The notes under the pieces were generated by a model. It was not told the DNA's origin and did not search any database. It was given only the letters and a program-made list of their open reading frames with translations. Both the position numbers and the translations under genes were made by a program. DNA of 64,000 nucleotides from Alphaproteobacteria bacterium (GTDB lineage: Bacteria; Pseudomonadota; Alphaproteobacteria; UBA828): positions 96,001-160,000 of the forward strand of contig CAXXVO010000014.1 of the NCBI GenBank assembly GCA_963422645.2, read 5' to 3'. This document shows positions 10,118 to 38,221 of the stretch, one piece after another. The number at the start of each line of letters is the position of its first letter. Position 1 is the stretch's first letter.

Positions 10118-10177
10118 GAATTGAACCCGTGTCTCCACCTTGAAAGAGTGGTGTCCTAACCTCTAGACGAAGGGGTC
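10103..10177 (-). tRNA. tRNA-Glu (TTC)
   Basis: Reverse complement GACCCCTTCGTCTAGAGGTTAGGACACCACTCTTTCAAGGTGGAGACACGGGTTCAATTCCCGTAGGGGTCACCA folds as a cloverleaf; anticodon TTC; encoded CCA. Confidence 0.96.
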
Positions 10178-10220
10178 GGTGGCTTGGGCCGCGCTATGTA
10201 GCGGGCGTGGCGCCTCAAAA

Positions 10221-12029: not shown

Positions 12030-12050
12030 CGAGTCAGGTGCCGGGGCTAA

Positions 12051-13049: not shown

Positions 13050-13058
13050 CGGTGCCTC

Positions 13059-14366: not shown

Positions 14367-14593
14367 GTGTGCGTGCTGCTTTCTGTTCGTTTCGCAACGA
14401 GAGGGGAGGGCGGCCAGCTCGATCCTGGTCGCCCGGCACACCGTGAAAGCGACGGATCACGACGGGGTAAGGGTCTCGGCGAGCCGGTCGCGTGGTGGGC
14501 TGCGGGGCACGCCGCCGGCGGCCCGCATGCCCTTTTCACAAGCTAAGAAGGCGGCTGGCGCGATCATCCGCCGTTCACCGGAGCAGGCTCCGC

Positions 14594-19594: not shown

Positions 19595-19939
19595 TTCGCT
19601 CACGACGATGGGATATGACGTAACGGCGCACGGACCCGTTCGGCTCTCGCCAGCCAGCGCGCCGCCGGGAGTATGCCACAGGACGTCGCCCAGTCAACGG
19701 CAGCGTTGCGGGGCCTGGGGCGTTCGCCTCGTTGGCCGACTGCACCGCGCAGCCCCTCACTCTTGGGAGAGATCCCTGCCGAGCGGCCTTTACGACAGTG
19801 ACGGGCTCGGAGACCCTGGCTTCTAGCCCACGTCTCACTCTTGAATGCCCCGGCTGGGAGCGAAGAAAACGAAGTTGTATGCTAGTATCAATCACTTATC
19901 CAGCATCGTTGTTTGATGACGTCGAGTGGCGGGGGTGTG

Positions 19940-20680
19940 ATGTCGATCTTGATTTCAGGCGGAACCAAGGGCATCGGGCGGGCCATCGGTCTCGCCTTCG
20001 CCGAGCCCGGCGTCGACGTGTTTCTCAACTATCACGGCGATGACGATGCGGCGGACGAGGCCCGGACACTGGTCGACTCGAAGGGTGCGCGCTGTCATCT
20101 GATCAAGCAGGATGTCTCGACGCCGGGGGGCTGCCGGGCTGTGCTCGCCCAAGTGGCGGAGCGCGTCGACCGGCTCGACCAGCTCGTGCACTGCGCGGTC
20201 CGCGCCATTCCGAAGCCCGCGCTGGACTGCGACCCGGACGATTTCACCGCCGCGGTCAATCTCAACGGCACGGCGCTGCTCTATCTCGTGCAGGCGGCCG
20301 ATCCGCTGCTCCAGCGCGGCAGCACGGTGTTCTTTCTCACCAGCCGGGGCGGGCGCACCGTGGTCCCCAACTACGCCGCCATCGGCATCGCCAAGGCGCT
20401 GGCGGAATCTTTGGTGCGCTATCTCGCGAGCGAGCTTGCGCCGCGCGGCGTGCGAATCAACAGCGTCGCTCCCGGCGTGGTAGATACGGATGCGGTGCGG
20501 GCGTTGTTCGGCGACCAGGCGAGCGAGATCGTGAAGCACGCCGCCGAGACGAACCCGAGCGGACGCGGCGTGCGGGACGAGGACTACACCAGCGTGATCC
20601 GCTTCCTCGCGAGTCCGGAGGCCGCGTTCGTCCAGGGGCAAACGATTTTCGTCAACGGCGGCCACTACCTGGCGGCGTAG
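19940..20680 (+). CDS. SDR oxidoreductase, FabL/enoyl-reductase-like
   Basis: SGGTKGIG NAD(P) motif; Y-x6-K catalytic motif (YAAIGIAK). Confidence 0.85.
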   Translation: MSILISGGTKGIGRAIGLAFAEPGVDVFLNYHGDDDAADEARTLVDSKGARCHLIKQDVSTPGGCRAVLAQVAERVDRLDQLVHCAVRAIPKPALDCDPDDFTAAVNLNGTALLYLVQAADPLLQRGSTVFFLTSRGGRTVVPNYAAIGIAKALAESLVRYLASELAPRGVRINSVAPGVVDTDAVRALFGDQASEIVKHAAETNPSGRGVRDEDYTSVIRFLASPEAAFVQGQTIFVNGGHYLAA

Positions 20681-20689: not shown

Positions 20690-21871
20690 TCAACCCAGCC
20701 GCTCGATCAGCGTCGCGTTGGCCATGCCGCCGCTCTCGCACATGGTCTGAAGGCCGAGGCGGCCGCCGCTCTCCTCCAGGCTCCCGATCAGGCTGGCCGT
20801 GAGCCGGCCACCCGATGCGCCGACGGGATGGCCGAAGGCGATGGCCCCGCCGTTGACGTTGACGCGGTCGAGGTCGGCACCCAGCGTCTCCGCCCAGGCC
20901 AGCACCACCGAGGCGAAGGCTTCGTTGACCTCGAAGCGGTCGATCTCGCCCAAGGTCCGGCCGCTTCGCGCCAGCAGCTTTTCCGTTGCCGGGATGATCC
21001 CCGTCAGCATGAGCAGGGGGTCGTCGCCCGAGACCGCGAAATGCGTGATCGCCGCACGCGGCGTCAGGCCCAGCCGCTGCACCGACTCCTCCGACGCGAT
21101 CAGCAGTGCCGAGGCGCCGTCGGAGACCTGGCTCGAATTCCCCGCCGTCACCACCCAGCCGATCTCGGGGAAGCGCTCGGCCTTGCCGGCATCCACGAAC
21201 GCGGGCTCCAGCGCGGCGAGCTTTTCCGCACTCGTATCGGGGCGGATGCCTTCGTCCGTCGAGGCCCCGTCGATGGGCAGGATGTCGCGCGCGAAGACGC
21301 CGCGCTCCTCGGCCGCCGCCGCGCGCCGGTGCGAGCGCAGCGCGTAGGCATCGAGGTCGGCGCGCGAGAGCCCCCAGCGGGCCGAGATCAGCTCGGCGGA
21401 AATGCCCTGGTGCACCAGACCGTCGGCGTAGCGCCGGCGCAGCATCGGCCCGAGATGGTCCTTGCCGCGCCGGTTGCTGCCCATCGGCACGCGGCTCATC
21501 ATCTCGACCCCGCAAGCGATGACGAGGTCGTAGGCCCCCGCCATCACGCCCTGCGCCCCAAAATCCATCGCCTGCTGCGCCGAGCCGCACTTGCGGTCGA
21601 TGGTGACGGCGGGAACGGTCTCGGGAAAGCCCGCCGCGAGCCAAGCCTGGCGGCCGATGTTGGCGGCCTGCTCGCCCGCCTGGATGACGCAGCCCGCGAT
21701 CACGTCGTCGACCGCGCCGGGATCGACGCCGGTGCGCGCGACCAGACCCTCGAGCGTCATCGCAAGCAGGTCGACCGGATGAACCGCGCTCAGCGCACCA
21801 TCCGCCCGCCCCTTGGCGAAGGGAGTGCGGACCACATCGATGATGAGGGCGCGGCGCATCCTAGCCGGCAC
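20690..21871 (-). CDS. Thiolase (acetyl-CoA C-acyltransferase)
   Basis: IDRKCGS (Cys), NEAFA, GHPVGASG, TMCESGG. Confidence 0.95.
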   Translation of the reverse strand: MPARMRRALIIDVVRTPFAKGRADGALSAVHPVDLLAMTLEGLVARTGVDPGAVDDVIAGCVIQAGEQAANIGRQAWLAAGFPETVPAVTIDRKCGSAQQAMDFGAQGVMAGAYDLVIACGVEMMSRVPMGSNRRGKDHLGPMLRRRYADGLVHQGISAELISARWGLSRADLDAYALRSHRRAAAAEERGVFARDILPIDGASTDEGIRPDTSAEKLAALEPAFVDAGKAERFPEIGWVVTAGNSSQVSDGASALLIASEESVQRLGLTPRAAITHFAVSGDDPLLMLTGIIPATEKLLARSGRTLGEIDRFEVNEAFASVVLAWAETLGADLDRVNVNGGAIAFGHPVGASGGRLTASLIGSLEESGGRLGLQTMCESGGMANATLIERLG

Positions 21872-23321
21872 GACGGAGCGAAACCGAGAGATTGGCGCTT
21901 TCCACCTCCACGTACTTCGAGGTGGAAAGCGCCATCAACTTGCGCACGTGTTCGAGCTCCGGCGTGGAGAGAATCGGGAAGTCGCGCTTCACCGGGCCCG
22001 CGGCCCGCATCCTCTCCAGGTCCGCCGCCGGGACCAGGGCGCGCAGGATCAGCTCGTCGTCATCGTCGGTGCCGTGGCGCTTGCGAAGCTCGGCCAAGGT
22101 GGGCTGCTCCGGCGGCTCGGCCAGCACCTCCTTGGCACGGGGCGCGGCCATGATCCGGTCCAACACGTCCGGATCGATGGGCGCTACCGGCTCGCCGTAG
22201 TGCCCGCCGGCATACTGGATCACCTCGTCCGGAATCACGGCGTAGCGCTCGCCGGTGACAATGTTGAGCACAGCTAGGGTGCCGACGAGCTGGGAGAAGG
22301 GCGTCGCCATGCCGGGGTAGCCCAGCTCGCGGCGCACGCGGCCGGTCTCCTCCAGCACGTCGTCCAGCCGGTCCGCCATCTCGTGCTGGACGAGCTGCGC
22401 CTTCAGCGTCCCCATCATGCCGCCCGGCACCTGGTGGTGCACGGAGAAGAGGTCGTATTCCTGCGGCACGCCCACGGGGAAGCCCGCCGCCGTGGCGACG
22501 CCCTCGAAGTGCTCCGCGATCTGCGGCAGGAGCGATCGATCGATATTGTGGGTATGGCCGAGATGCTCGACGTTCCGTGTCATCACCTCGACCGAGGGGA
22601 CGGAAGGGCCGTTCGCCATCGGCCCGCAGGCCGTGTGCAGGATACGGATGCCGAGCTCGATCGCCTCGACGTAGGCGCGGCCGGAGGCGCCCAGGAGGTT
22701 ATTCGAGTGGAACTCGATGGGCTTGCCGCGCGCGTTCGCCATGATGGCCGGCACCAGCGTGCGCATGCGGTCCGGCTCCAGCACGCCGCCCGTGTCGTAG
22801 AGCAGGAGCGTGTCGATATCCGGCGAGGCCGAGAGCCTGTCCGCTTTGTCGGCGTAGTAGTCGTCGGTGTGCACCGGGCTCAGCGTGAACATGATGGCGC
22901 CTGCCACCTCCGCGCCGAACTCCTTGGCCACCCTGGCGAGGCGGTGTGTCTTGTCGATGTTGAAGAGCACGTCGTAGATCCAAAAACTGCGGCAGCCGTG
23001 CACGCAGAGCTGCCGCATCCAGACGTCCATCAGCGCATCGGGCGTGACGCCGAAGGTGACGCTCGCATTGCTGCGCATGCCGCCCCGGATCGTGCTCTTG
23101 GGCATGGCGTCGACCAGGAGGTCGAGCCCCTCCCACGGATTCTCGCGGCATTGGCGGATCAGGACCTCGAAGAGGCTCGAGCCGGTGAGGTCCACCACCC
23201 GATAGCCGACCCGGTCGATCACCGGTGCAATGGGGAGCGCCATGCCGGCCTGCATGCGCATGCCCCACAGGCTCTGCTGTCCGTCCCGCATGGTCTCGTC
23301 GAGGAATTCGATGTGCGCCAT
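21861..23321 (-). CDS. Carboxyltransferase subunit, pyruvate carboxylase B/OadA-like with altered active site
   Basis: RDGQQSL, ENPWE, HQVPGGM, LGYP..ATPFSQLVG; YDTGG in place of KDMAG; HSN in place of HxH. Confidence 0.88.
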   Translation of the reverse strand: MAHIEFLDETMRDGQQSLWGMRMQAGMALPIAPVIDRVGYRVVDLTGSSLFEVLIRQCRENPWEGLDLLVDAMPKSTIRGGMRSNASVTFGVTPDALMDVWMRQLCVHGCRSFWIYDVLFNIDKTHRLARVAKEFGAEVAGAIMFTLSPVHTDDYYADKADRLSASPDIDTLLLYDTGGVLEPDRMRTLVPAIMANARGKPIEFHSNNLLGASGRAYVEAIELGIRILHTACGPMANGPSVPSVEVMTRNVEHLGHTHNIDRSLLPQIAEHFEGVATAAGFPVGVPQEYDLFSVHHQVPGGMMGTLKAQLVQHEMADRLDDVLEETGRVRRELGYPGMATPFSQLVGTLAVLNIVTGERYAVIPDEVIQYAGGHYGEPVAPIDPDVLDRIMAAPRAKEVLAEPPEQPTLAELRKRHGTDDDDELILRALVPAADLERMRAAGPVKRDFPILSTPELEHVRKLMALSTSKYVEVESANLSVSLRRAG

Positions 23322-23332
23322 CGTCGCTCCGC

Positions 23333-24691
23333 TCAGTGCATCAGCGAGGGCATGAAGACGTCCTCCAGCCAGCGCGTGTTGAGCCTGTTAGCCGTGAAGT
23401 CAGGGTGCCGCACCAAGTGCGCCTGGAACGCGAGGTTGGTGTCGATCCCGCCGATCTGAAATCGGTCCAGCGCGCCGCCCATGCGCTCCACCGCTTCGGC
23501 GCGGTCGCCAGCGCGCACGATCAGCTTCGCGATCATGCTGTCGTAGAAGGGAGACACGAAGGCACCCGGGCGGCAGTGGCTGTCTATGCGAATGCCCTGT
23601 CCCTCCGGTGCGCACCAGGCGTCGATCAGACCGGGCGAGGGCGCGAAGTCCCGCTCCGGCGCCTCGGCGTTGATCCGGCATTCGATGGCGTGGCCGGCAA
23701 GCGCGATGTCTTCCTGCGCGACGCTGAGCCCGCCGCCGCCCGCGATGCGCAACTGCTCCTCGATCAGGTCGATGCCGGCGACCTCCTCGGTCACGGGATG
23801 CTCGACCTGGATGCGGACATTGGCTTCGATGAAATAGGCCTCGCCGCGGTCAACGTCGTAGAGGAACTCGACCGTGCCGGCGCTCCGATAGTCGAGGTGC
23901 CGGGCGAGGCGGCAGGCGGCGTCGTGAATCTGCGTGCGCGCTTCGGCCGGCAGCGCCGCCGCCGGCGCTTCCTCCACCATCTTCTGGAAGCGCCGCTGCA
24001 CAGAGCAATCCCGCTCGCCGAAATGGACGACCGCGCCGTCGCCGTCGCCCATGATCTGCACCTCAACATGGCGCGCGTCCTCGACGAAGCGCTCAACGAA
24101 GAGCGTACCGTCGCCAAAGGCGGCCTTGGCCTCCGTCGATGCACGCTCGAAGCCATCGTCGATGTCCGCATCCCTTCGTGCGACGAACATGCCGCGCCCG
24201 CCGCCACCTGCGCTGGCCTTCATCAGCACCGGGTAGCCGACGGAGGCGGCGAAGGAGCGGGCCTCGGCTGCCGAATGGATACGGTCGGAGCCGGGGACGA
24301 TGGGCACGCCCGCTTCGATCGCGATGGTGCGGGCGGTGAGCTTGTCGCCGAGCCGCTCGATGGTCTCGGCCCGCGGCCCGACGAACGCGATTCCCTCCCG
24401 CTCGCACAGGCCGGCGAGAGCCGGGGACTCGGAGAGGAAGCCGTAGCCCGGATGCAGTCCGTCGCAGGCGGTGGCCTCGGCCGCATGCACAAGCAGGTTG
24501 GCGTTGAGGTAGCTCTCGCGCGCCGGCGCCGGCCCCAGCACCACCGCGCGGTCCGCGAGCTCCGCCGCCAAGCCCTCGCGGTCCGCGTCGGAGACCCCGA
24601 CAACGCACTCGAGCCCGAGCGCGCGGCAGGCGCTGACGATGCGCACGGCGATCTCCCCCCGGTTGGCGACGAAGACGCGCGAGAGGGCCAT
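23333..24691 (-). CDS. Biotin carboxylase subunit
   Basis: ANRGEIA, HPGYGFLSE, GGGGRG, ERDCSVQRR, RIQVEHPVTE, YDSMIAK. Confidence 0.95.
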   Translation of the reverse strand: MALSRVFVANRGEIAVRIVSACRALGLECVVGVSDADREGLAAELADRAVVLGPAPARESYLNANLLVHAAEATACDGLHPGYGFLSESPALAGLCEREGIAFVGPRAETIERLGDKLTARTIAIEAGVPIVPGSDRIHSAAEARSFAASVGYPVLMKASAGGGGRGMFVARRDADIDDGFERASTEAKAAFGDGTLFVERFVEDARHVEVQIMGDGDGAVVHFGERDCSVQRRFQKMVEEAPAAALPAEARTQIHDAACRLARHLDYRSAGTVEFLYDVDRGEAYFIEANVRIQVEHPVTEEVAGIDLIEEQLRIAGGGGLSVAQEDIALAGHAIECRINAEAPERDFAPSPGLIDAWCAPEGQGIRIDSHCRPGAFVSPFYDSMIAKLIVRAGDRAEAVERMGGALDRFQIGGIDTNLAFQAHLVRHPDFTANRLNTRWLEDVFMPSLMH

Positions 24692-25161
24692 CACGCCGTC
24701 TCGGCCGCTTCGGCCTCCGGCTCGACCAGAAAGAGCGGTACGCCAAACTCCACCATCTCGCCGTCCTCGACGCAGGCCTTGGCGATCCGGCCGCTGATCC
24801 CGGCCCGCACCGGCGTGAACAGCTTCATGACCTCGATCAGACAAACCTCGGTTGCCTCGCTGACCTGCTGGCCGACCTCCACGTAGGGCGCGATCCCCGG
24901 CTTGGGCGCGCGGTAGAAGGTGCCGAGATTGGGCGCCGTGATCGGCACAAGCCCATCGGCCGGCGCCGCTTCGGCCGGATCGGGAGGGGCCTGCTCCTCC
25001 GAGGCTACGCCAGCCTCCGTCGCCGCCGATCCGAGTGCCGCCGCATCCGCATCCTTCGAGAGCACCAGCTTCAGGCCGTCGGTCTCGAGCCGGAGCTCGT
25101 GCCAGTCCGAGCGGTCGAAGATGCGGATCAGCGCCTCGACCTCCTTGCGGTCGACGGTCAT
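24691..25161 (-). CDS. Biotin carboxyl carrier protein
   Basis: GTFYRAP and biotinylation motif EVMKL. Confidence 0.93.
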   Translation of the reverse strand: MTVDRKEVEALIRIFDRSDWHELRLETDGLKLVLSKDADAAALGSAATEAGVASEEQAPPDPAEAAPADGLVPITAPNLGTFYRAPKPGIAPYVEVGQQVSEATEVCLIEVMKLFTPVRAGISGRIAKACVEDGEMVEFGVPLFLVEPEAEAAETA

Positions 25162-26918
25162 GCAGCGGTCTCCGCGCGCGCGGCGGCACAGGCCGCAAGC
25201 AGTGCCGGCAGGGCGTGGCGCACGACGATGAAATCGAGACCGGCGGCGACGGCGGCCGCGACACCCGCATCGCTGGCGAGCGCGCCGCCCTTTGCGCCGG
25301 GAGTCCCCTCGAGCAGCGCGGGCAAGCGCTCCGGGTCCGCACCGCCCGGCAAGCGGTCGAGATCGACCGCGCCCTCCGGCGCCGCGTCGCCCGCGCGATA
25401 GACCGCCATCGGCGCGGCCGCGCGGGCCCATGACGTGATCTGGCGGAGGTAGGGATCGTCCGTCTCCGAAGGAACGCTCACCGGCAATGCGCCATCGAAC
25501 ACCTTCCCCGCCTTGCCGTCCACCGTCACCTCCCTGCCCGCAAGCGCTGCGTCCACGCCTTCGCCGCAGCCGACGACGCAGGGAACGCCGAGGGAGCGGC
25601 TTACCACGGCGGCGTGGGAGGTCGCACCCCCGGTCGCCGTCACGACAGCGCGGGCGGTGACCATGCCGTGCACGTCGTCCGGGCTGGTGGTCGGGCGCAC
25701 CAGCACAACGTCCTCGCCGGACGTGCCGCGCGCCTCGGCCGCATCGGCGTCCAGCACGACTTTGCCGATGCCGACACCGGGGCTCGCTCCCTCTCCCTCG
25801 GCGAGCAGGGAGGCGTTCTCCCCGGCGCCGTCGTCAAGGCGGGGCATGAGCAGCATGCGGACCTGGGCCGCGCTGACGCGGGCGAGTGCCTCGTCCGTGG
25901 AGATCCTTCCCTCATTCACCAGGTCGACCGCGACGCGCATGGCCGCGGCGGGAGCCCGTGCGGCGGTGCGGGTCTGCAACAGGTAGAGCGCGCCCTCTTG
26001 TACCGAGAACTCGATGTCCTGCACATCCCGGTTCAGCGCTTCGAGCCGGCGCGCGGCGTCGATCAGTGCGGCGTGCGCCTCCGGCAGGGAAGACGCCAGC
26101 GCATCCAGTCCCTGCGGCGTCCGCTGGCCGGAGACCACGTCCTCCCCCTGGGCGCGGGCGAGATACTCGCCGTAAGGCGCAGGCGCCCCGGTGAGCGGGT
26201 TGCGGCTGAAGAGCACACCCGTTCCGCTGTTCTCGCTGAGGTTGCCGAACACCATGGCTTGAACCGTGACGGCGGTCCCTGCGTCGTCCGGAAGCCCGTG
26301 ATGCCGGCGATATCGCTTCGCGCGCCGTCCGTTCCAGGAGTCGAAGACGGCGCGGACCGCGCCGAGAAGCTGATCGGCCGGCGCGTCCGGCACGCTACCC
26401 GCCGCCCCCGTCTCCGCAACGGTTGCGCGCCATGTCGCTGGGGTCCCTTGGGAAGGCAGCCCGTCGATCGCCGCCTTGAGCACGATGCGCGCGTACATCT
26501 CGTGGAAGCGCCGATGCGTGTCGCGGGCGAAGACAGCGTCGCCGCTCTCGGCTGCGAGCGCTGCCTCGATTTCCTCGTCGATCCCGAGATTGAGCACCGT
26601 ATCCAGCATACCCGGCATGCTGACGTCGGCGCCGGAGCGAACGGCCAGCAGCAAGGGGCGTTCGTGCGCGCCGAAGCGGCGCCCGGTCTCCGCCTCCAGC
26701 ATGGCGATGCCGGCGTGAAGCTCGTCGACGAGGCCGTCCGGCAGCGCGCCTTCGGCGAGATAGGCGCGGCAGGCCTCGGTCGTCGCCACGAAGGCGGGCG
26801 GCACCGGCAGGACTGCGTGGCGCATGACGGCGATGCCCCACGCCTTGCCGCCGATCAGCGCGCGGTCGGGCTGCGCCGCGCCGTCGAGGAAGAGCACCCA
26901 GCGGCCGACAGCACCCAT
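25158..26918 (-). CDS. PPDK-like dikinase: ATP-grasp plus phospho-His domain, lacking the pyruvate-binding barrel
   Basis: GGK, VPPAF, VRSGA..SMPGMLDTVLN, QAMVFGN, QGEDVVSG, DIEF, LLQTR, GGATSHAAVVSR; ends ~90 aa after the His domain. Confidence 0.92.
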   Translation of the reverse strand: MGAVGRWVLFLDGAAQPDRALIGGKAWGIAVMRHAVLPVPPAFVATTEACRAYLAEGALPDGLVDELHAGIAMLEAETGRRFGAHERPLLLAVRSGADVSMPGMLDTVLNLGIDEEIEAALAAESGDAVFARDTHRRFHEMYARIVLKAAIDGLPSQGTPATWRATVAETGAAGSVPDAPADQLLGAVRAVFDSWNGRRAKRYRRHHGLPDDAGTAVTVQAMVFGNLSENSGTGVLFSRNPLTGAPAPYGEYLARAQGEDVVSGQRTPQGLDALASSLPEAHAALIDAARRLEALNRDVQDIEFSVQEGALYLLQTRTAARAPAAAMRVAVDLVNEGRISTDEALARVSAAQVRMLLMPRLDDGAGENASLLAEGEGASPGVGIGKVVLDADAAEARGTSGEDVVLVRPTTSPDDVHGMVTARAVVTATGGATSHAAVVSRSLGVPCVVGCGEGVDAALAGREVTVDGKAGKVFDGALPVSVPSETDDPYLRQITSWARAAAPMAVYRAGDAAPEGAVDLDRLPGGADPERLPALLEGTPGAKGGALASDAGVAAAVAAGLDFIVVRHALPALLAACAAARAETAA

Positions 26919-26920
26919 GC

Positions 26921-27523
26921 CTATTCCTGCCGCGTGCGGCCGAGGATTCGCAGCAGGTCTTCGTGAAGCTCGAACCACACCGTGTGATAGGACTCGATCC
27001 GTGCGCCGCTGACCCACTCGATAGCGCCGTCCTCGGCCTTCTCCAGCGCCGCTTCCAGCTTGCACGCGTAAATCGCGAGGCGCGGCAGGCCGGCGCTCAG
27101 TTGCTGGAGGATCGCCTCCGCCCGCTCGTGCAGGGCGCCCAGACGATCGATCAGCCTATCGTCATAGTCCTTGTTGGTGTGATCGTTCAGCACGCTCTCG
27201 CCGTCGATCTCGATGGTCTGCCACGCGGTCATCAGCGCCTTGAGGTCTCGATTGATCGCCTCGAAGCGCTCGCAGGCGGAGGCGAACGCCGGGTCGGCCC
27301 GTTGCGCGGCAAAGAGCCTGGAATAGGCGCCGTCGAGGGCCACGCGCGCGACAGGCGTCAGGGAATACGCCTCGCCGGCGCGCAGGGCGCGGCCCTTGGC
27401 CACCGCCTCGTCGAGCGCCGCCTGCACCTCGGTCTCGTCGAGTCCGACTGCTTTGGCGATCGCCGCGGCGTCCGCATGCTTCTTGATCGCGAGGCCGTGG
27501 AGGACGAGATAGGTGTCGGTCAT
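26921..27523 (-). CDS. MarR-like winged-helix protein of the type found beside truncated ppdK genes (Rv1126c-like)
   Basis: N-terminal HTH; C-terminal W..., NDH.D..YD and SYHTVWFELHEDL motifs. Confidence 0.75.
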   Translation of the reverse strand: MTDTYLVLHGLAIKKHADAAAIAKAVGLDETEVQAALDEAVAKGRALRAGEAYSLTPVARVALDGAYSRLFAAQRADPAFASACERFEAINRDLKALMTAWQTIEIDGESVLNDHTNKDYDDRLIDRLGALHERAEAILQQLSAGLPRLAIYACKLEAALEKAEDGAIEWVSGARIESYHTVWFELHEDLLRILGRTRQE

Positions 27524-27526
27524 GGC

Positions 27527-29020
27527 TCAGGCACTCTCCCGCTCGGCCGTCGTGTCGGCCGAGGCGAGGACGCGGTCTCGGACCGCGCGGCGCAGGAGCT
27601 TGCCTGCCCCGCTCTTGGGCAGCGTGTCCCAGATCTCGACGCTCTTCGGGCACTTGTAGCCGGCGAGCCTCTCGCGACAGAACTGCCGCACTGCCTCCGG
27701 GTCGAGACCCGGCCGCCCGGCAACGACGGCATGGACGCGATCGCCCCACTTCTCGTCGGGCAGTCCCACCACGGCGGCCTCGACGACGCCCTCGTGGGCC
27801 AGCAGCACATCCTCGATCTCGCGCGGGTAGACGTTGTAGCCGCCGCTGATGAGCATGTCGTTCTTGCGGTCGAGAATGTAGAAGAAGCCGTCCTCGTCGA
27901 TGCGGCCGATGTCGCCGGTATGGAGCCAGCCGTTGCGGAAGGCCCTGGCGGTCTCCTCCGGGCGCTTCCAGTAACGGGCCATGAGCTGGGTCCCGCGGCA
28001 GACGATTTCGCCCCGCTCGCCGGTCGGCACCGGCTTGTCGTCCTCGTCGAAGACCGCCACGTCCGCGGTGGTGTAGGGCCGCCCGCACGAGCCCACGCGG
28101 TCGTGATCCTCCGGCCCGAGATAGGTAATCACCATGGGGGACTCCGCCTGGCCGTAGGTCTGGGCGAAGACCGGGCCGAAACGGGCCATGGCGCGCTCCA
28201 GCAGGCTCGGCGCGATGGGCGATGCGCCGTAGCAGATGCGTTTGAAGCGGAGGTCCGCCGTCTCCAGCGCGGGCTCCTCCATGATCATCGCCAGCATGGT
28301 CGGCACCAGAAAGGTGTGGGTCGCGCGCGCCTGCGCAGCCATGGCGATGAAGCCGACGGCGTCGAAGTGCGGCATGATCCACTGGTGCACGCCCCGTACC
28401 AGCGCGGGCAGGAAGAAGGCGCCACTCGCGTGCGCGATGGGGGCGGCGTGGAGGAAGCGGTCGCCCGACGCGAGGTCGGGCACCAGGTCCATGAGAAAGG
28501 CCGAGAGCTCCGCAGTCTCGCCCAGCGTGGTGAGCGTGACCGCCTTGGGCGCGCCGGTGGTCCCGCCCGTGAAGCCCAGGCGATAGGGCGCCTCAAGCTC
28601 GCGGTCCACGCAGCAGACGCCGGGTGGTCCCTCGTCGATGAGCCGGCGGAGCGCGTCGGCGCCGTAGACCATGGCCGCGCCGAAGCCCTTGGCGCCCTCG
28701 ACATCGTCGTGGATGAGGCCGCGGGCGCCGCTGTCGCCCAGCTTGTAGCGATGGTCCGCCGCCGTCTCGCGCACGTTGAGCGAGACCCGCACGAGGCCGG
28801 ACTTGGCGATCGCGTAGTAGGCGATCAGGCAATCGATCCCGTTGGGCAGCAGCACGCCGACGCGGTCGCCCAGCTCGAAGCCTTCCGCGAGCAGCGCGTT
28901 GCCGAGCCGGTCCGTCGCCGCGTCGAAGGCGCGGAAGCTCAGCGTGCGCGTCCCTTCGGTCAGCGCCGGTGCCTCGCCGTACATGAGCGCCGCGCGCCGG
29001 ATGTACTCGCCGATCTGCAT
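27527..29020 (-). CDS. Acyl-CoA synthetase (AMP-binding)
   Basis: FTGGTTGAPK, YGQAE, LHTGD, DRKNDMLISGG, GYKCPK, GK. Confidence 0.95.
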   Translation of the reverse strand: MQIGEYIRRAALMYGEAPALTEGTRTLSFRAFDAATDRLGNALLAEGFELGDRVGVLLPNGIDCLIAYYAIAKSGLVRVSLNVRETAADHRYKLGDSGARGLIHDDVEGAKGFGAAMVYGADALRRLIDEGPPGVCCVDRELEAPYRLGFTGGTTGAPKAVTLTTLGETAELSAFLMDLVPDLASGDRFLHAAPIAHASGAFFLPALVRGVHQWIMPHFDAVGFIAMAAQARATHTFLVPTMLAMIMEEPALETADLRFKRICYGASPIAPSLLERAMARFGPVFAQTYGQAESPMVITYLGPEDHDRVGSCGRPYTTADVAVFDEDDKPVPTGERGEIVCRGTQLMARYWKRPEETARAFRNGWLHTGDIGRIDEDGFFYILDRKNDMLISGGYNVYPREIEDVLLAHEGVVEAAVVGLPDEKWGDRVHAVVAGRPGLDPEAVRQFCRERLAGYKCPKSVEIWDTLPKSGAGKLLRRAVRDRVLASADTTAERESA

Positions 29021-29060
29021 GAGTTCAGGCCGCCTGGACGTGTGGGAGCGGGGCGCGTCT

Positions 29061-30614
29061 CTAGTCGCGGGGGAGCGCCGCCAGCTCCGCAGCGCCGAGC
29101 GATGCCCCGCGACCCTGGATCTTGCGCGCCCGCTCCTGCTCCAAATGGTACATCTCGTCCGCGCGCGCCGTGTCGTGGTTGTACTTGAGCCAGGTCTCGT
29201 CCAGGAAACGATAGCGGTCGGACTGCGGCGCGAAGGCGCGGACCCGCGCGTTGTACTCCTCCAGCGTCAGCACGCCCTGGCTCGTGCGGTAGCGGTCGGC
29301 CTTGGCCGGGAGCGTGGTGGCGCCGGGATAGACCGGGCCGCAAGTGGGCACGTACTCCTCGCCGTCCAGGATCGCGTAAGGGATCGGCGTATACATGCGG
29401 GTCGGGCCGTTGCCGTGCTGCATCATGCTGTAGGACGAAAGGCGATGGCTCGCCAGCGTCAGCAGTCCCACCAACTCGCCCAGGCAGTCGCGGCTGAACT
29501 CGTCGTTGAGCAGGGGGCGGAAGCGCTCCGCCCGCTCGTCGATCAGCATCCAGTCCTCTCGGGCGTAGACGCCGGCGACGTGGGCGAGGTCCTTGCAGAT
29601 GCCGAAGTAGGTGAGCGCGCCGGCGTCGAGCATCTGGTCGCGGCTCCAACCGGCGATGCGCCTCCAGAGCCGCGCCGTCGCTTCCTTGAAGAGCCCGTCC
29701 AGCGTGCGGAATATCTCGGTCAGGGTCTCGCGACTCTCCATCCCCACCGGAACGTGCCCCTCGGTGAGCGGGTCGGAGGTGTAGAGGCCGACGCCGATGA
29801 TACTCTCCGCCCTGAACTCAGGCTCGGATTCGAAGCTTCCCCAGTCGTCGACCAGGTAGAAGTGGCAGTCCTTCACCAGCATCGGGACGGTGAGGTTGTT
29901 GTAGGGAATGTCGGCCGCCACGTCGTCGAGCCAGGGGAAGTCGCCTTCGCCGAGGTCCATGAAGTCGCGGACGATCATCTCCACGCCGTCGGCGACTTTG
30001 TAGGGCCCGGTGTTGAGCAGACTGATGCGGCTCTCGCAGCTCACCAGGAAGCCGTATTGCGCCGCAGAAGCCATGAACTGGGTCGCCGCGCTGTGCAGCG
30101 CATCGCCGGCCTCGCAGCCGTAGGCGTCGGACTCGAAGACCTGAAGCCGCCGCTCCGGCAGGATCTGGCAGCGGTGGCCGAACTCCTTATTGGTGATGTG
30201 GCCGTCGTTACGGTGCCAGGAGAGTTGCAGGCGTTTCCAGAAGTCCATCAGGTAGACGAGGTCTTCCACGGCGTCCTGCGGGCGCAGAAGGCCCATATTG
30301 ATGAGCCACTCGCGGCCGAGCAGGTAGAAGCCCGGCATTCCCCAGCCCATGGCGCTCTTGCCCGGCGGGCGTCCCTCCCGAGCGCGATCGCCGATCTCTT
30401 CCGCCGTCATCACGCTCTCCACCTTTCGCAAGAGCGAGGGGTAGCGGTAGAAGGCGTTGAGGTAGGAGAGCAGCATGTAGGGCGGCACCGGAAAGAGCTT
30501 GGATTCCTGCACGGTGCGCGTGACGCAGAGCCAGTAGGTCTCGTCGGTGAAGGTTTGCAGGAGGTTGTTGGTCTCCAGCAGCTGAGCGTAGGAGAGGCGA
30601 GGCGCGCCGACCAT
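29061..30614 (-). CDS. Hypothetical protein (517 aa), translationally coupled to the His-domain gene
   Basis: Long ORF with protein-like composition; TGATG stop/start overlap at 30612-30616; no motif I recognise. Confidence 0.8.
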   Translation of the reverse strand: MVGAPRLSYAQLLETNNLLQTFTDETYWLCVTRTVQESKLFPVPPYMLLSYLNAFYRYPSLLRKVESVMTAEEIGDRAREGRPPGKSAMGWGMPGFYLLGREWLINMGLLRPQDAVEDLVYLMDFWKRLQLSWHRNDGHITNKEFGHRCQILPERRLQVFESDAYGCEAGDALHSAATQFMASAAQYGFLVSCESRISLLNTGPYKVADGVEMIVRDFMDLGEGDFPWLDDVAADIPYNNLTVPMLVKDCHFYLVDDWGSFESEPEFRAESIIGVGLYTSDPLTEGHVPVGMESRETLTEIFRTLDGLFKEATARLWRRIAGWSRDQMLDAGALTYFGICKDLAHVAGVYAREDWMLIDERAERFRPLLNDEFSRDCLGELVGLLTLASHRLSSYSMMQHGNGPTRMYTPIPYAILDGEEYVPTCGPVYPGATTLPAKADRYRTSQGVLTLEEYNARVRAFAPQSDRYRFLDETWLKYNHDTARADEMYHLEQERARKIQGRGASLGAAELAALPRD

Positions 30615-31366
30615 CACGAAGCCTCCTGGGCCAGCTTCCAGATGTTGGCGGTCACTTCCTCGCCCTTCTGATAGGCCTCCGCCGTTTTCGCCGCCGCGGC
30701 GGTCTCCATCTCCAGGCGCTGACCTTCCTTGATCCCGGTGATCTTGGCGTTCATGAGGCAGGGAATACCGTATTCCCGCGCGAGAATCCCGAGGTGGGAA
30801 CGCACGGTGCCGCCCATGCAGATGATGCCGGTGAATTGCTCCAGGATCGGCGCGGTGAGGGTGCCGCCGGAATCGTCGATGATGGCGATGGTCTCGGGCG
30901 GCACGCCGTCGCCGAGATAGCGCATGACCTGGCTGCTGGAGCGGACGTAGCGCGCGGTGCCTACGGTATTCTCGGCGACGCGCATCACGTTGTCGCCGAC
31001 GCCGCAAAGCGCCCTGCCCTCTGCATCGGCCTCGCCGGAGGGCGCGTCCGGGTGCTCCATGGTCCAGTCGGGGTCGTCACCCAGGATGCCTTCGGCGGGC
31101 TTATAGGCCTCGGGCCGTTCGTTCACCGAAATCACCGCCGAGAAGTCGTAGCGGTGGCCGGCGTCGAGCAGCTTCCTTTCGATCTCCTCGAAATCGGCCG
31201 CGGTGATCAGATCGTAGGACTTGTCGAAGACGAAACTGTTCCAGTCGACCCCGCTCTCGCCCAGGCGGCGCCTCACCAGGTCCTTGATCGCGCTGTGGAA
31301 GGCCTCGACGGTGGGCGAGTGTGCCTGATCGCCGTACTTGTCCGTGTCCACGTAAAGCTTGGCCAC
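30614..31366 (-). CDS. Stand-alone PEP-utilising mobile (phospho-His swivel) domain protein with N-terminal extension
   Basis: GIICMGGTVRSHLGILAREYGIPCLM; GTG start with RBS GGGGAG. Confidence 0.85.
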   Translation of the reverse strand: MAKLYVDTDKYGDQAHSPTVEAFHSAIKDLVRRRLGESGVDWNSFVFDKSYDLITAADFEEIERKLLDAGHRYDFSAVISVNERPEAYKPAEGILGDDPDWTMEHPDAPSGEADAEGRALCGVGDNVMRVAENTVGTARYVRSSSQVMRYLGDGVPPETIAIIDDSGGTLTAPILEQFTGIICMGGTVRSHLGILAREYGIPCLMNAKITGIKEGQRLEMETAAAAKTAEAYQKGEEVTANIWKLAQEAS

Positions 31367-31513: not shown

Positions 31514-32302
31514 ATGCCAGCGGAGAGCGATCTCTCCCACCACCGCATCCTGGTCACCAATGACGACGGCATCCATGCCAGGGGGCTGAAAATTCTCGAG
31601 GCGATCGCGCGGAGCCTGTCCGACGATGTCTGGGTCGTCGCGCCTGATCACGAGCGGAGCGGCGCCGGCCATTCCATCTCGATGCACACGCCGATCCGCC
31701 TGCGCCAGATGGGGGAGAAGCGCTACGCGGTGGACGGTACGCCCACCGACTGTGCGCTCATGGCGATCCACGAGCTGATGACCGAAAGCCCGCCCACGGT
31801 CCTCCTCTCCGGCATCAATCGCGGCGCCAATCTCGCGGATGACATGACCTATTCGGGCACCATCGCCGCCGCGATGGAGGGGACCCTGCTCGGCATCCGC
31901 TCGATCGCGCTCAGCCAGGTGTTCACCATGGGCGGTGAGGCGCTCTGGGCCACGGCGGAGGCCTTCGCGCCGGACGTGATCCAAACCCTCATGCGCCTGC
32001 CGGACTGGCCCTCCGGCACGCTGGTCAACGTCAACTTCCCGGATGCGCTGCCGGAATCTGTGAGCGGCGTCCGCATCACCACCCAGGGGCAGAGGCCGCC
32101 CGGCTCCTTCACCATCGACGGGCGGATCGACACGCGCCACGTGCCCTACTACTGGGTGGAGATCAGCTACAAGAACGGCGGCAAACACCCCGGCACCGAT
32201 CTCTTAGCAATCCACGAGAACGCGATATCGGTCACGCCGATCCAGCTCGACATGACCAATCATGGCTGGCGCGGCCACTTGACGGAGGCGTTCGGCTCGT
32301 AA
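31514..32302 (+). CDS. surE: SurE-family 5'/3'-nucleotidase/phosphatase
   Basis: ILVTNDDGI, DGTPTDC, SGINRGAN, YSGT, NVNFP, ISVTPI. Confidence 0.93.
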   Translation: MPAESDLSHHRILVTNDDGIHARGLKILEAIARSLSDDVWVVAPDHERSGAGHSISMHTPIRLRQMGEKRYAVDGTPTDCALMAIHELMTESPPTVLLSGINRGANLADDMTYSGTIAAAMEGTLLGIRSIALSQVFTMGGEALWATAEAFAPDVIQTLMRLPDWPSGTLVNVNFPDALPESVSGVRITTQGQRPPGSFTIDGRIDTRHVPYYWVEISYKNGGKHPGTDLLAIHENAISVTPIQLDMTNHGWRGHLTEAFGS

Positions 32303-32404: not shown

Positions 32405-33784
32405 ATGACACTATCATTTGGTGTAATTCGGGCAGGGCTGCTTGGCGCAGCCCTGTGTGTGGGCCTCGTGGCCGGCCCGCAGCTGGCCAAGGCCGAGGAC
32501 ACCTTCAAGTTCGGCGGCGTCTTCACGCTCTCGGGTCCGGCCTCCTTCCTTGGTCTCTTCGAGGAAGCGGCCGTGAGGCTCGCCGTCGAGCAGTTCATGA
32601 AGGGCGATTGCATCGTCGAGGCCGTTCCGCCGCAGCCCTGCGAGGGCGGCGGGCTCAAGATCGGAGACAAGGTCGTCCCCATCGAGTGGACGGCCTACGA
32701 CGACGTCTCCGAGGACAAGAAGTCGATCGACGCCGTCATCCGCCTGGTCGAGCAGGACGAAGCCCGGGCAATCTGGGGCCCGCGGATGAATTCGGCGTTG
32801 CTCTCGGCTGCGTCGATCCTCGATCCGCAGGGAATCATCAGCATCTGCGCGATCTGCTCGAGCCCGGCGATGACCGTGGGCCGCGAGTACGGCCACGACA
32901 TCACCGACACCGGCGTGATCGAGAAGCACGGCATGGGCGAGCTCATCCACGAATCGTCCGAGAGGCTGGCGGAGCACGGCATCGATCCCGCGCTCTTCGA
33001 TGGGCGCAAGAAGCTCGGCTTCATCGGCCGGAACGAGCTTTACACCGTGCATGGCTCCATCGGCTGGCAGGAAGCGGTGGAGAAGGGCGGCGGCAGGTAC
33101 GAGTACCAGCACGACTGGGCGGTGCTCTATCCCTTCGGCACCACCGACTTCGCGCCCCACGTCGCCAGGCTCGCCGAGCAGGATCCCGACATCGTCCTGA
33201 TGGATGCCTACATCTTCCCCGACATGCTGGCGATCATGAGTGAGATGAAGAAGCAGGGGCTCGACTATGAGACCGGCGAGATCATTCTGCTCGGCAACGA
33301 CGTGCTGATGCTGCAGGTCTTCGTCGACGTGGCCAAGGATCAAGGCATCAACATGTCGTCGGGCTACGTCTGGGGTTGGCAAGAGCATAACCCGGCGCAG
33401 GACGAAGCCACGCTGGCGCGGGTCGAGAAATACGTGCCCATCTACAACGCGAAGTACGGCGACACCGAGGTCGGGAGCTCGAGCCCCTTCGATCGCGGCG
33501 CCTACGACGCCGCCATCTGGTTCCTCTACGGCGTGCAGGCCTCGGGCGATCACACCGACAACGACAAGATCGTGGAAGCCTGGCGCAGCCTGAAGATCAA
33601 CGGCCTGCGCGGGCCGACGAACGAGTTCTTCACCCGGCCCGATACCGGCGAGAAGACCGGCCAGCTGTTCGCGACCGAGTACATCATCGGCGTCGCGGAC
33701 GACAAGGTCTTCTACACCGGCATCAGCTATCGCGACGAGCTCTTCTACGGGCCCTACGTCTACGGCGACAAGCTGCCGAAGTAG
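32405..33784 (+). CDS. ABC transporter substrate-binding protein (LivK-like)
   Basis: Signal peptide, LSGPA, TTDFAP, YDA; lies upstream of LivH/M/G/F-type genes. Confidence 0.88.
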   Translation: MTLSFGVIRAGLLGAALCVGLVAGPQLAKAEDTFKFGGVFTLSGPASFLGLFEEAAVRLAVEQFMKGDCIVEAVPPQPCEGGGLKIGDKVVPIEWTAYDDVSEDKKSIDAVIRLVEQDEARAIWGPRMNSALLSAASILDPQGIISICAICSSPAMTVGREYGHDITDTGVIEKHGMGELIHESSERLAEHGIDPALFDGRKKLGFIGRNELYTVHGSIGWQEAVEKGGGRYEYQHDWAVLYPFGTTDFAPHVARLAEQDPDIVLMDAYIFPDMLAIMSEMKKQGLDYETGEIILLGNDVLMLQVFVDVAKDQGINMSSGYVWGWQEHNPAQDEATLARVEKYVPIYNAKYGDTEVGSSSPFDRGAYDAAIWFLYGVQASGDHTDNDKIVEAWRSLKINGLRGPTNEFFTRPDTGEKTGQLFATEYIIGVADDKVFYTGISYRDELFYGPYVYGDKLPK

Positions 33785-33836
33785 CCCTGCGGCGGGGGCG
33801 GTCTAGGCCGGGTTCCGCAGGTTGAGAAGACGCTGG

Positions 33837-33876
33837 GGCGGCGCCTGCCCGCGAGGGCGCGCGCCGCCTCTCTTTT
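33837..33876 (+). terminator. Intrinsic terminator-like hairpin after the SBP gene
   Basis: GGCGGCGC..GCCC-GCGA-GGGC..GCGCCGCC followed by TCTCTTTT. Confidence 0.55.
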
Positions 33877-34018
33877 GCCCTCAATCGCCGGGCGCTCGCT
33901 CCGCGAGCTTGGCTCCGCGCCATGCGGCGCGCCGGCGCGGTCGCGCCGGCCAGACCGCTTCGCGGCCCGGTTTTTCTGACGTCCATACTTTGTCGCCTGC
34001 CGGCAAGGTCGGGATTCC

Positions 34019-34894
34019 GTGACCGCGTTCGCTCAGCAGCTCATCTACGGCGCCTCCTACGGCATGAACCTTGCCGTGGCGGCGGCGGGGTTGGCCCTCA
34101 TCTTCGGCGTCTACCGGGTCATCAATCTCGCCCACGGGCAGCTCATCATGCTCGGCGGCTTCGTGGCCTACGTGGTCGCGACGCAGCTCGGCACGCATTT
34201 CTTCGTCGGCTTCTTCGCCGCCATGATCGTCATGGGGCTGCTCAGCATCGTGCTGGAGAACGCTGTCTTCCGCTTCCTCCAGCGCCGTCCGCTCACCGAC
34301 CAGCTGCTGGCGTCGCTCGGCATCTACATGGTGCTGGGCACCACGGCGCTGCGTATCTGGGGGGACTTCGAAGCCCGGCCGATCAACATGCCGGGCGAGG
34401 ACTGGGCGCTGACAGCCGGTGAAATCCGTATCGACGGTGCGCGACTGGTCACCATCGCCATTACTCTCGTCCTGTTCGCATTGCTCTATTTCGTCGTCTA
34501 CCGCACCCATCTCGGGCGGACCATGCGCGCCACCGCCCAGGGGGAGGAAACCGCCGCCCTGATGGGCATCAAGAAGCGCCGGGTGGCGGCCATCGTGTTC
34601 TTCCTCGGCGGCGCGCTCGGCGGCGCTGCCGGCGCCATGCTCGGCGCGCTCTTCAACGTGCGGCCGGACATGGGCTTCCAGCCGCTGCTGATGGCGCTCG
34701 TCATCATCATCTTCGGGGGCATGGGCAGCATCGCGGGCTCCATCGTCGCCGGCCTCATCCTCGGCATTCTCTACAACCTCACGGTGTTCTACGTCGGCTC
34801 CAAGCTCGGCGATCTGGTGCCCTTCCTGGTGCTTCTGGCGATTCTGATGATCCGCCCTCAGGGGCTCTTCGGCCTGCCGGATCGGAACGCATGA
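34019..34894 (+). CDS. Branched-chain amino acid-type ABC permease (LivH-like)
   Basis: GLALIFG..VINLAHG, GRTMRATAQ, A.LMGI, GGMGS. Confidence 0.93.
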   Translation: MTAFAQQLIYGASYGMNLAVAAAGLALIFGVYRVINLAHGQLIMLGGFVAYVVATQLGTHFFVGFFAAMIVMGLLSIVLENAVFRFLQRRPLTDQLLASLGIYMVLGTTALRIWGDFEARPINMPGEDWALTAGEIRIDGARLVTIAITLVLFALLYFVVYRTHLGRTMRATAQGEETAALMGIKKRRVAAIVFFLGGALGGAAGAMLGALFNVRPDMGFQPLLMALVIIIFGGMGSIAGSIVAGLILGILYNLTVFYVGSKLGDLVPFLVLLAILMIRPQGLFGLPDRNA

Positions 34895-35928: not shown

Positions 35929-35934
35929 CGGCCA

Positions 35935-36684: not shown

Positions 36685-36685
36685 G

Positions 36686-37393: not shown

Positions 37394-37428
37394 GCGACGC
37401 TCGCCGCCCGAAACAGGAGGATCGCGCC

Positions 37429-38202: not shown

Positions 38203-38221
38203 GCGCTCAGGGAGACGCACG

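Follow-up and report, generated by a model that had tools for sequence, protein, structure and literature searches.

A conserved nine-gene operon that may phosphorylate, carboxylate and cleave a ketone with a putative four-protein kinase

The 64,000-nucleotide (nt) stretch of DNA analysed here, called the window, comes from an alphaproteobacterial genome of the UBA828 lineage (contig CAXXVO010000014.1, positions 96,001–160,000). Our subject is an operon of nine co-oriented open reading frames (ORFs) on its minus strand, g1 to g9, at window positions 20690–31366. An earlier note, written from the sequence alone, had described nine co-oriented genes whose junctions mostly overlap or are 2–11 bp apart, with a largest gap of 40 bp, and recomputed coordinates and junctions agree (−1, +40, +3, +2, −4, −4, +11 and −11 nt from g1 to g9). 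The gene assignments given there, from a His-domain protein to a thiolase, are likewise upheld by Pfam and NCBIfam profile scans of the window proteins, which supply the domain assignments listed below. All nine ORFs exhibit the high third-position GC bias of real genes; GC content in 2-kb windows is 61–72%, and about 68% around the operon.

g1, 30614–31366, minus strand: 250-amino-acid (aa) protein with a C-terminal PEP-utilizers swivel domain (PF00391, residues 158–218) and an N-terminal stretch of about 150 aa without a family
g2, 29061–30614, minus strand: 517-aa protein of no family; its start shares 1 nt with the g1 stop
g3, 27527–29020, minus strand: 497-aa FadD-type AMP-forming acyl-CoA ligase (AMP-binding, 223 bits, and AMP-binding_C)
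g4, 26921–27523, minus strand: 200-aa winged-helix protein that also has a helical bundle; no family scores above cut-off
g5, 25158–26918, minus strand: short homologue of pyruvate phosphate dikinase (PPDK) with PPDK_N and PEP-utilizers swivel domains
g6, 24691–25161, minus strand: biotin carboxyl carrier protein (BCCP; Biotin_lipoyl, TIGR00531)
g7, 23333–24694, minus strand: biotin carboxylase (BC; Biotin_carb_N, CPSase_L_D2 and Biotin_carb_C; NF006367, 597 bits)
g8, 21861–23321, minus strand: 5S-type carboxyltransferase (CT; PYC_OADA, 96 bits, and a weak HMGL-like match)
g9, 20690–21871, minus strand: degradative thiolase (Thiolase_N and Thiolase_C)

The arrangement of these nine genes is conserved far beyond chance. 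Among the candidates scored, g2 has 998 relatives at E ≤ 0.001; the 120 matches listed are 63–99% identical to it, include alpha- and gammaproteobacterial records and are all unnamed or hypothetical, and a scan of one genome per species finds a g2 relative encoded in 379 species genomes. We placed the nine window proteins by tblastn in the best 80 g2 loci and counted gene order, at an identity threshold of 40%, in the 45 loci with flanks of at least 9.8 kb on the downstream side and 0.8 kb on the upstream side of g2. All nine genes are present, co-oriented and in the same order at 28 of these 45 loci. The ligase alone is absent from its place at seven, the BCCP falls below 40% identity at three, the thiolase is absent at two and a BC match at two, g5 is located elsewhere at one, and the last two loci are partial or rearranged. 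Orthologues from the distant loci (L013–L080) have median identities of between 46%, for the BCCP, and 73%, for the CT.

The neighbourhood is thus conserved across genomes, a point that the earlier note had wanted checked: its carriers are alpha-, beta- and gammaproteobacteria, and it recurs on Rhodococcus plasmids. Named carriers include Roseiarcus fermentans, Pseudooceanicola atlanticus, Chachezhania sediminis, Marinibaculum pumilum, Sphingopyxis sp. J-6 and Sphingobium estronivorans. The identical gene order is found on plasmids of Rhodococcus oxybenzonivorans S2-17 and R. pyridinivorans P23, where g9 is replaced by an OB-fold protein and an SCPx-type thiolase, and a rearranged version of the operon lies on a Novosphingobium resinovorum megaplasmid. 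A literature search found no description of this gene set, although the supplements of two papers (PMC9618137, SI Fig. S5; PMC12624787, Datasets S2 and S3) may list overlapping clusters. One metatranscriptome library (X20) gives a weak hint of expression, its contigs being 90–95% alike over 29 of 30 locus bins; these derive from a relative, and DNA carry-over is possible. A promoter and terminator scan returned no promoter-like and two terminator-like sites, which is not above the level in shuffled sequence.

The gene content invites comparison with the Hpe system of Rhodococcus rhodochrous GD02 and the Acv system of Sphingobium sp. SYK-6. According to the report on them, the phenol of 4-hydroxyacetophenone or acetovanillone is phosphorylated, the acetyl group is carboxylated, the phosphate is removed and acetyl-CoA is released via CoA esters (PMC9618137). 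The same report assigns the steps to a kinase (HpeHI/AcvAB), a carboxylase (HpeCBA/AcvCDE) that takes only the phosphorylated ketone, and a phosphatase (HpeD/AcvF) (PMC9618137). The reaction order proposed for the operon parallels theirs, from an ATP-dependent dikinase of the His-swivel kind to a biotin carboxylase of three subunits, including a 5S-type CT, and on to a linked phosphatase and a CoA-dependent removal of acetyl-CoA.

The predicted ATP-using phosphodonor of the kinase is g5. This protein scores 708.9 bits against NF004531 (cut-off 456), 143 bits against PPDK_N and 83 bits against PEP-utilizers, and aligns with solved PPDKs at 385 bits. That alignment ends at PPDK residue 537–538, the match to TIGR01828 (494.7 bits, under the 843 cut-off) covers profile positions 191–538 of 865, and the Pfam scan found no third domain. 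Because the alignment to Protein Data Bank (PDB) structures stops at this point, g5 lacks the C-terminal phosphoenolpyruvate (PEP)/pyruvate barrel, in keeping with the truncated PPDK that the earlier note had described. Its ATP-grasp and central phospho-histidine domains are homologous to those of PPDK, and its swivel histidine, H435 in a TSH motif, is invariant in 57 of 57 sequences. The difference from PPDK is that the barrel is missing and that the acceptor function would be provided in trans by g1, g2 and g4. Similarity to HpeI, the ATP-grasp subunit of the Hpe kinase (PDB 9goj; PMC12167813), amounts to 24 bits (E = 9.6e-5).

The NF004531 model is unspecific, as it also scores full-length PPDKs and, at E ≤ 1e-50, finds a match in 229 of 301 Alphaproteobacteria (one unpublished genome, G240, belongs to this set). 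Among these 301, the short, high-scoring form occurs in four genomes only (G000, G048, G222 and G263). The window genome carries a full-length PPDK frame on another contig and also a classical two-component dikinase (L176; G000:C7:50000-69000, 7661–14473), and thus g5 is neither the housekeeping PPDK nor the sole aromatic-type kinase of the genome. The subunits of the two-component dikinase are a 494-aa protein bearing a swivel at its C-terminus and a PPDK_N protein of 365 aa; two transposases precede it, and FAD and molybdopterin subunits of the xanthine-dehydrogenase family follow.

Natural fusions indicate which proteins work with g5. Relatives of g2 that are 717–728 aa long carry a g4-like part, as in P0068, whose residues 529–723 are 62% identical to g4 (E = 1e-72). 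A swivel domain precedes the g2-like domain in the distant relatives P0177 and P0189, and a 793-aa protein encoded on plasmid pROB02 of Rhodococcus opacus B4 combines a swivel with g2-like and g4-like parts, with a separate short PPDK nearby that is 45% identical to g5. In soil metagenomes, shorter g2-like genes adjoin a small swivel ORF in 4 of the 12 loci examined. P0068 was also considered as a g1–g2 fusion, for which there was no match. Because fusions join them, g1, g2 and g4 probably constitute one phospho-acceptor component, and the kinase is best described as a predicted four-protein unit with g5 as its ATP component. The earlier note had likewise proposed a PPDK-type protein with separate partners.

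The same fusions revise the view of g4 as a plain regulator. Its predicted model (predicted local distance difference test (pLDDT) score 95.3) begins with an N-terminal winged helix, and a Foldseek search of this model against the PDB gave weak winged-helix matches only. The helix-turn-helix (HTH) label of the earlier note is therefore right about the fold, which also explains the ‘MarR’ annotation of a Methylibium relative, but because g4 is fused to g2 it is more plausibly a kinase subunit than a stand-alone regulator.

The second invariant histidine of the unit is H191 of the g1 swivel, a predicted phospho-histidine conserved in 76 of 76 sequences; a profile of g1 yields only weak swivel matches in the PDB, at E values of at least 0.04. 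Since H191 and H435 are both invariant, and lie in the acceptor and donor parts, respectively, a phosphoryl relay from g5 to g1 and on to the substrate is suggested.

This leaves g2 as the proposed substrate-binding part of the phospho-acceptor component. It has no Pfam or NCBIfam match, and the sequence profile finds one PDB match at E = 0.63. The structure predicted from a 45-sequence alignment is of high confidence (pLDDT 91.2, predicted template-modelling score 0.91). A Foldseek search of this model against the PDB nevertheless returned nothing at E ≤ 0.001 (best E = 0.064, template-modelling score 0.08; the search used the whole chain and could miss a single-domain match), a wide structure search with VIA gave a best Z score of 2.3, and the ESM Atlas offered no usable lead (best score 0.79). 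Among these whole-chain searches, the modelled g2 matches no known family or fold.

Related modules occur elsewhere. In 5 of the 12 metagenome loci examined (L111, L115, L138, L141 and L149), genes of a shorter g2-like subfamily (about 370 aa) precede one for a DUF7064/DUF7065 protein; genes for malate dehydrogenase, fumarase, succinate dehydrogenase and glycerol kinase are among the neighbours of the subfamily, and none of the 12 contexts gave a substrate clue. On a plasmid of Methylibium petroleiphilum PM1 (L084, 9890–12779), g2-like, small hypothetical, small swivel and g4-like ‘MarR’ genes lie a few kilobases from genes resembling those for 2-hydroxyisobutyryl-CoA mutase (B12-binding, AMP-ligase, MeaB and mutase). 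Just upstream of the main operon, plasmid pRB98 of R. oxybenzonivorans (L083, 5902–10272) carries two extra swivel/g2-like modules, of which one is a fusion, and a single short PPDK is annotated in that 25-kb stretch. One phosphodonor might thus serve several acceptor modules.

The carboxylase encoded by g6, g7 and g8 is the part of the operon that most resembles a described system. The biotinylation motif EVMKL of g6 is invariant in 52 of 52 sequences. An AcvAB-type cluster on a Rhizobium leguminosarum plasmid served as stand-in for the Hpe, Acv and Xcc enzymes that have been characterised, and to this cluster the BCCP, BC and CT are 39, 50 and 41% identical, respectively. The remaining proteins are another matter: g1 and g5 match the AcvAB-type pair only in the swivel (33–39% over 91–100 aa) and in a weak ATP-grasp stretch, and g2, g3, g4 and g9 have no match in the cluster at E < 0.01. 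The proteins are thus not close orthologues of a characterised pathway, as the earlier note had anticipated, with only the three carboxylase subunits resembling the stand-in.

The CT itself is unusual. It shares with pyruvate carboxylase, OadA and 5S subunits an HMGL-like barrel and a PYC_OADA domain, scoring 204 bits against OadA (2nx9) with some 390–420 residues aligned to 2nx9, 5ks8 and 1rqb. Its HMGL-like score of 23 bits is under the cut-off, however, and it falls below the cut-off of every NCBIfam pyruvate carboxylase, OadA and 5S model. Tyr175 of g8 aligns with Lys178 of OadA, RDGQQS stands in place of RDAHQS, and H205-x-N207 replaces HxH. The tyrosine occupies the lysine position in 53 of 53 proteobacterial CTs and the asparagine replaces the second histidine in 48 of them, whereas the Rhodococcus orthologue has glutamate at the lysine position and keeps HxH. 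By contrast, lysine and HxH are both kept in nine of nine comparators (four Acv-type CTs, three from kinase-free clusters, OadA and pyruvate carboxylase). We take the four residues of this K/HxH type to be the metal ligands of the 5S subunit. In OadA, Lys178 is proposed as the carboxyl-carrying lysine (PMC2881705). The operon CT thus differs from pyruvate carboxylase, OadA and 5S subunits in the loss of the carbamylated lysine and in an HxH motif that is mostly HxN.

A tree of 26 CT sequences, hand-chosen from 52 orthologues and 150 plasmid records and rooted at its midpoint only, separates OadA and pyruvate carboxylase from all others (support 100/100). The operon CTs form one clade of 17 (100/99) and the Acv-type CTs a clade of four (100/100); these two clades and a kinase-free Sulfitobacter sequence make up a group (96/93) whose internal order is unresolved, and the CTs of kinase-free Burkholderia and Cnuibacter clusters fall outside it. 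The apparent grouping of g8 with Acv/Hpe-type CTs, apart from OadA and pyruvate carboxylase and lacking the carbamyl-lysine, agrees with the earlier expectation that the enzyme is not of a pyruvate or acetyl-CoA type.

The NCBIfam names of g5 and g8 are those of pyruvate enzymes, from which one might suppose that both act in central metabolism, turning pyruvate into PEP or oxaloacetate beside a ligase and a thiolase that are unrelated neighbours. The missing pyruvate barrel of g5, the full-length PPDK frame elsewhere in the genome, and the scores, absent catalytic lysine and tree position of g8 all speak against this, as does the fact that the ligase and thiolase genes are translationally coupled to the others and conserved with them. 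We regard this explanation as hardly credible.

The two kinase-free clusters outside the 96/93 group deserve mention in their own right. On a Cnuibacter physcomitrellae plasmid (L091, 7926–14610), CT, BCCP and BC genes lie with BioY, a 3-oxoacid CoA-transferase and a thiolase; on a Burkholderia sp. THE68 plasmid (L089, 7980–11392), they are found near an acetoacetate decarboxylase, an acetate symporter, a carbonic anhydrase and biotin synthesis genes. These clusters could encode biotin-dependent carboxylases for unphosphorylated ketones. A further type of ketone carboxylase, the biotin-independent, hydantoinase-type enzyme for acetone or acetophenone, is not represented among the nine operon proteins, which have no match to Hydantoinase_A/B. 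A hydantoinase A/B pair of the oxoprolinase/acetone-carboxylase superfamily does lie outside the operon at 61527–64000, where it runs off the window end, and is preceded by a class-III aminotransferase (60051–64000 for the whole group).

Downstream steps can be proposed for the two remaining enzymes. The nearest solved relatives of g3 are FadD8 and a feruloyl-CoA synthetase, and we propose that it is a β-keto acid CoA ligase. The thiolase g9 scores 433.5 bits against TIGR01930 (cut-off 240.55) and is proposed to cleave a β-ketoacyl-CoA to an acyl-CoA and acetyl-CoA. Two flanking genes, both overlooked by the earlier note, appear to be linked to the operon.

SurE-family phosphatase paralogue, 31520–32302, plus strand: PF01975, 199 bits; divergent from g1, start codon not fixed
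Short-chain dehydrogenase (SDR), 19913–20680, plus strand: adh_short_C2, 190 bits; convergent with g9, stops 9 nt apart

The SurE gene is not the housekeeping copy, which lies between serS and a LysM/M23 gene and is 46% identical to it; the window copy is 50–63% identical to the operon-near SurE proteins of the distant loci. Of 28 alphaproteobacterial loci with enough room, 23 have a SurE gene within the flank covered, and the rearrangement in N. resinovorum has not parted SurE from g1. Both annotated Rhodococcus operons (2/2) include a gene for Y_phosphatase3, placed after that for the thiolase. That two unrelated phosphatase families are linked to the same genes argues for a dephosphorylation step, which we propose is carried out in the window by SurE. 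Other recurrent neighbours, counted in 58 long loci, are an SDR (35), a second AMP ligase directly upstream (25), an SCPx-type thiolase (22), a GntR/FCD regulator (22), ADC-family proteins (13) and an enoyl-CoA hydratase (10). In gammaproteobacterial loci the SDR lies directly downstream on the same strand. It possibly performs an alcohol-to-ketone or a β-oxidation step and may belong to the system; sequence searches of the ligase and the SDR against the PDB gave no substrate clue.

Together, these observations are consistent with a catabolic route for a hydroxylated ketone that follows an Hpe/Acv-like logic with a third, unrelated type of kinase, a reading to which we attach about even confidence. 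In the first step, g5 would use ATP to autophosphorylate H435, and the phosphoryl group would pass to H191 of g1 and then to the substrate held by g2 with g4. The carboxylase would next act on the carbon beside the keto group of the phosphorylated compound to give a β-keto acid. The phosphate handle would be removed by the SurE paralogue, or by Y_phosphatase3 in Rhodococcus, after which g3 would form the β-ketoacyl-CoA and g9 would split it into an acyl-CoA and acetyl-CoA. This sequence of phosphorylation, carboxylation, CoA activation and cleavage is in essence that of the earlier note, to be completed by the linked SurE and SDR genes, and is the best reading because checks of co-occurrence, CT type and orthology refuted none of it.

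Most components nevertheless differ from their Hpe/Acv counterparts. The Hpe and Acv kinases are two-component and RPH-like, with an ATP-grasp-only subunit and a swivel/rifampin-binding-like subunit. The operon does not fit this plan, as its predicted kinase comprises four proteins (a PPDK-like ATP-grasp protein with its own swivel, a second swivel, g2 and the winged-helix g4), and structure searches with the g2 model (Foldseek, VIA) found no RPH-like structure. A HAD (NagD-like) phosphatase serves those systems, and a HAD gene is present in all Acv-type clusters examined; SurE or Y_phosphatase3 accompanies the operon, the window operon contains no HAD gene, and SurE has no match to the HAD proteins of the Acv-type clusters. 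Their ligase is of the acetoacetyl-CoA-synthetase type, whereas g3 is FadD-type and has no match at E < 0.01 to the 671-aa acetoacetate–CoA ligase of the AcvAB-type cluster. Where Hpe uses a β-ketoacyl-CoA hydrolase and Acv uses VceAB, the operon encodes the thiolase g9. Finally, Acv-type CTs keep the lysine that the operon CT lacks.

An exchange of kinases is plausible in itself, because the Acv carboxylase module is already described with two unrelated kinases, one of them MarK of Novosphingobium aromaticivorans (Saro_1862–1858) (PMC12624787). We also observe MarK-type clusters on Sphingomonas bisphenolicum pBAR1 and on a Pseudomonas putida YC-AE1 plasmid, and the CTs of these clusters are 37–41% identical to g8. 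The likeness lies in a ketone-carboxylase module served by an unrelated kinase. MarK, however, is a single UPF0261 (Tm-1-like) ATP-binding protein rather than a His-swivel relay, and unlike the operon the MarK-type clusters keep a HAD phosphatase and the K/HxH residues of the CT.

Could the operon then be merely a third kinase solution for the same substrates, namely 4-hydroxyacetophenone, acetovanillone or close aryl methyl ketones? Its CT clade adjoins the Acv-type clade, the Acv module tolerates two unrelated kinases, aromatic degraders are among the carriers (N. resinovorum, S. estronivorans and the Rhodococcus plasmids), and Y_phosphatase3 is a tyrosine (aryl) phosphatase family. However, the CT shares no more than 37–41% identity with Acv types and has a changed active site, no pobA, van or ring-cleavage genes were found in the window or the flanks examined, acyl-CoA dehydrogenase and hydratase genes occur in the flanks, and the window genome has its classical two-component dikinase elsewhere. 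We therefore consider identical substrates improbable.

Several observations weigh against the hydroxylated-ketone route as we have drawn it. The CT has lost the lysine kept by every Acv-type CT examined, and because of this loss its chemistry may differ from that of Hpe and Acv. Outside the Alphaproteobacteria, a SurE gene is close to the operon at just 2 of 23 loci, and among 73 flanking ORFs of 12 loci (11 gamma- or betaproteobacterial and one from Sphingopyxis) there is no phosphatase besides SurE in one. Those flanks instead contain SDR, acyl-CoA dehydrogenase, enoyl-CoA hydratase and MacB-type permease genes, of which the first three suggest an aliphatic chain and not necessarily a phenol. 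No ring-cleavage genes were found in the window. Moreover, the role of g2 as the substrate site is proposed from fusions and not from a known fold, and the need for two swivel histidines is without explanation.

Some of these points fit a different chemistry, in which the kinase would make the enol phosphate of an unfunctionalised methyl ketone such as acetone, butanone or a longer aliphatic or keto-acid compound. The modified CT would then couple phosphate loss to carboxyl transfer from carboxybiotin, and the resulting β-keto acid would be ligated to CoA and thiolysed, so that a separate phosphatase would be unneeded. It is in favour of such a scheme that g5 is a true PPDK homologue and the natural acceptor of PPDK is an enol, and that a CT whose Lewis-acid metal site is without the carbamyl-lysine and, in most sequences, without its second histidine suits a substrate that needs no enolisation. 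The gamma- and betaproteobacterial loci, mostly devoid of a nearby phosphatase and provided with β-oxidation genes, point the same way, as do a ligase and thiolase that are what acetoacetate or a longer β-keto acid requires and the frequency of freshwater and marine metagenome-assembled genomes among the carriers.

On the other side, the operon is accompanied by two unrelated phosphatase families, one in Alphaproteobacteria and one in Rhodococcus, the closest relatives of the CT use a substrate that bears its phosphate handle at a remote position, and the Rhodococcus CT, with its HxH and a glutamate at the lysine position, may retain the metal site. The same kinase type also occurs in a cluster of P450, alcohol and aldehyde dehydrogenase and phosphatase genes, where a stable phosphate ester fits better. 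On balance we judge the enol-phosphate scheme unlikely, and its most specific form is speculative enough that we would not expect it to hold: a relay through g5, g1, g2 and g4 resembling the phosphotransferase system (PTS) that ends in an enol phosphate, with the lysine-less CT acting as a biotin-dependent ‘phosphoenol-ketone carboxylase’. If true, such an enzyme would represent a new carboxylation mechanism, and the operon an unrecognised acetone or methyl-ketone route in aquatic and symbiotic proteobacteria.

The hydroxylated-ketone route can also be set beside two other phosphorylating or carboxylating pathways. The anaerobic p-ethylphenol pathway of Aromatoleum aromaticum EbN1 employs the SDR Hped, the ligase AcsA and the thiolase TioL with the carboxylase XccABC. 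Its gene content thus corresponds to that of the operon and the adjoining SDR: both have a biotin-dependent carboxylase, a ligase that forms CoA esters and a thiolase. In the report on the Hpe system, the EbN1 xcc genes are clustered with dikinase homologues, and the Xcc-linked kinase is of the HpeHI type (PMC9618137), not of the operon type.

The P450-containing cluster mentioned above lies on pROB02 of R. opacus B4 (L085, 114–13636). It encodes a reductase, a ferredoxin, the short PPDK, a P450, aldehyde and alcohol dehydrogenases, an ADP-forming CoA ligase, two APH-family kinases, the 793-aa fusion and a protein of the tyrosine-phosphatase family. The Cre system of Corynebacterium glutamicum reportedly combines the kinase CreHI with a P450, dehydrogenases and a phosphohydrolase, the phosphate handle on the phenol being removed after side-chain oxidation. 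The pROB02 layout resembles this system, with the kinase type of g5 and g1–g2–g4, and the resemblance supports the view that kinases of this family serve generally to attach a ‘phosphate handle’. Cre is not known to involve a carboxylase and differs from the operon also in its kinase. CreHI is of the RPH-like two-component type (PMC9618137).

Elsewhere in the window, a Liv-type ABC transporter (a binding protein, two permeases and two ATPases) followed by two tandem acetoacetate-decarboxylase-family genes occupies 32405–39010. Whole or partial copies of an IS66-family transposase lie at 3453–4970, 49434–49973, 52354–53469 and 58928–59731, and three 93-codon ORFs with identical composition figures (4694–4972, 49432–49710 and 59455–59733) look like repeated insertion-sequence ends.

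The phosphorylation of a ketone followed by its biotin-dependent carboxylation was, to our knowledge, described only in 2022 and thought to be rare, and the logic is of practical interest for converting lignin-derived aromatics. That logic is known already, but neither the composition of the kinase nor the family of g2 nor a CT devoid of the lysine is. The operon would add a third unrelated kinase solution to it, together with a CT that works without a lysine deemed central to its enzyme class and a possible histidine-to-histidine relay between two swivel domains. In g2 it presents a highly conserved protein family that has neither a Pfam model nor a structural match, and because the operon is found in cultured strains its substrate is directly testable. 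The related kinase modules of Rhodococcus further suggest a wider family of catabolic ‘phosphate-handle’ kinases that is at present annotated only as ‘hypothetical protein’ or ‘PEP-utilizing enzyme’.

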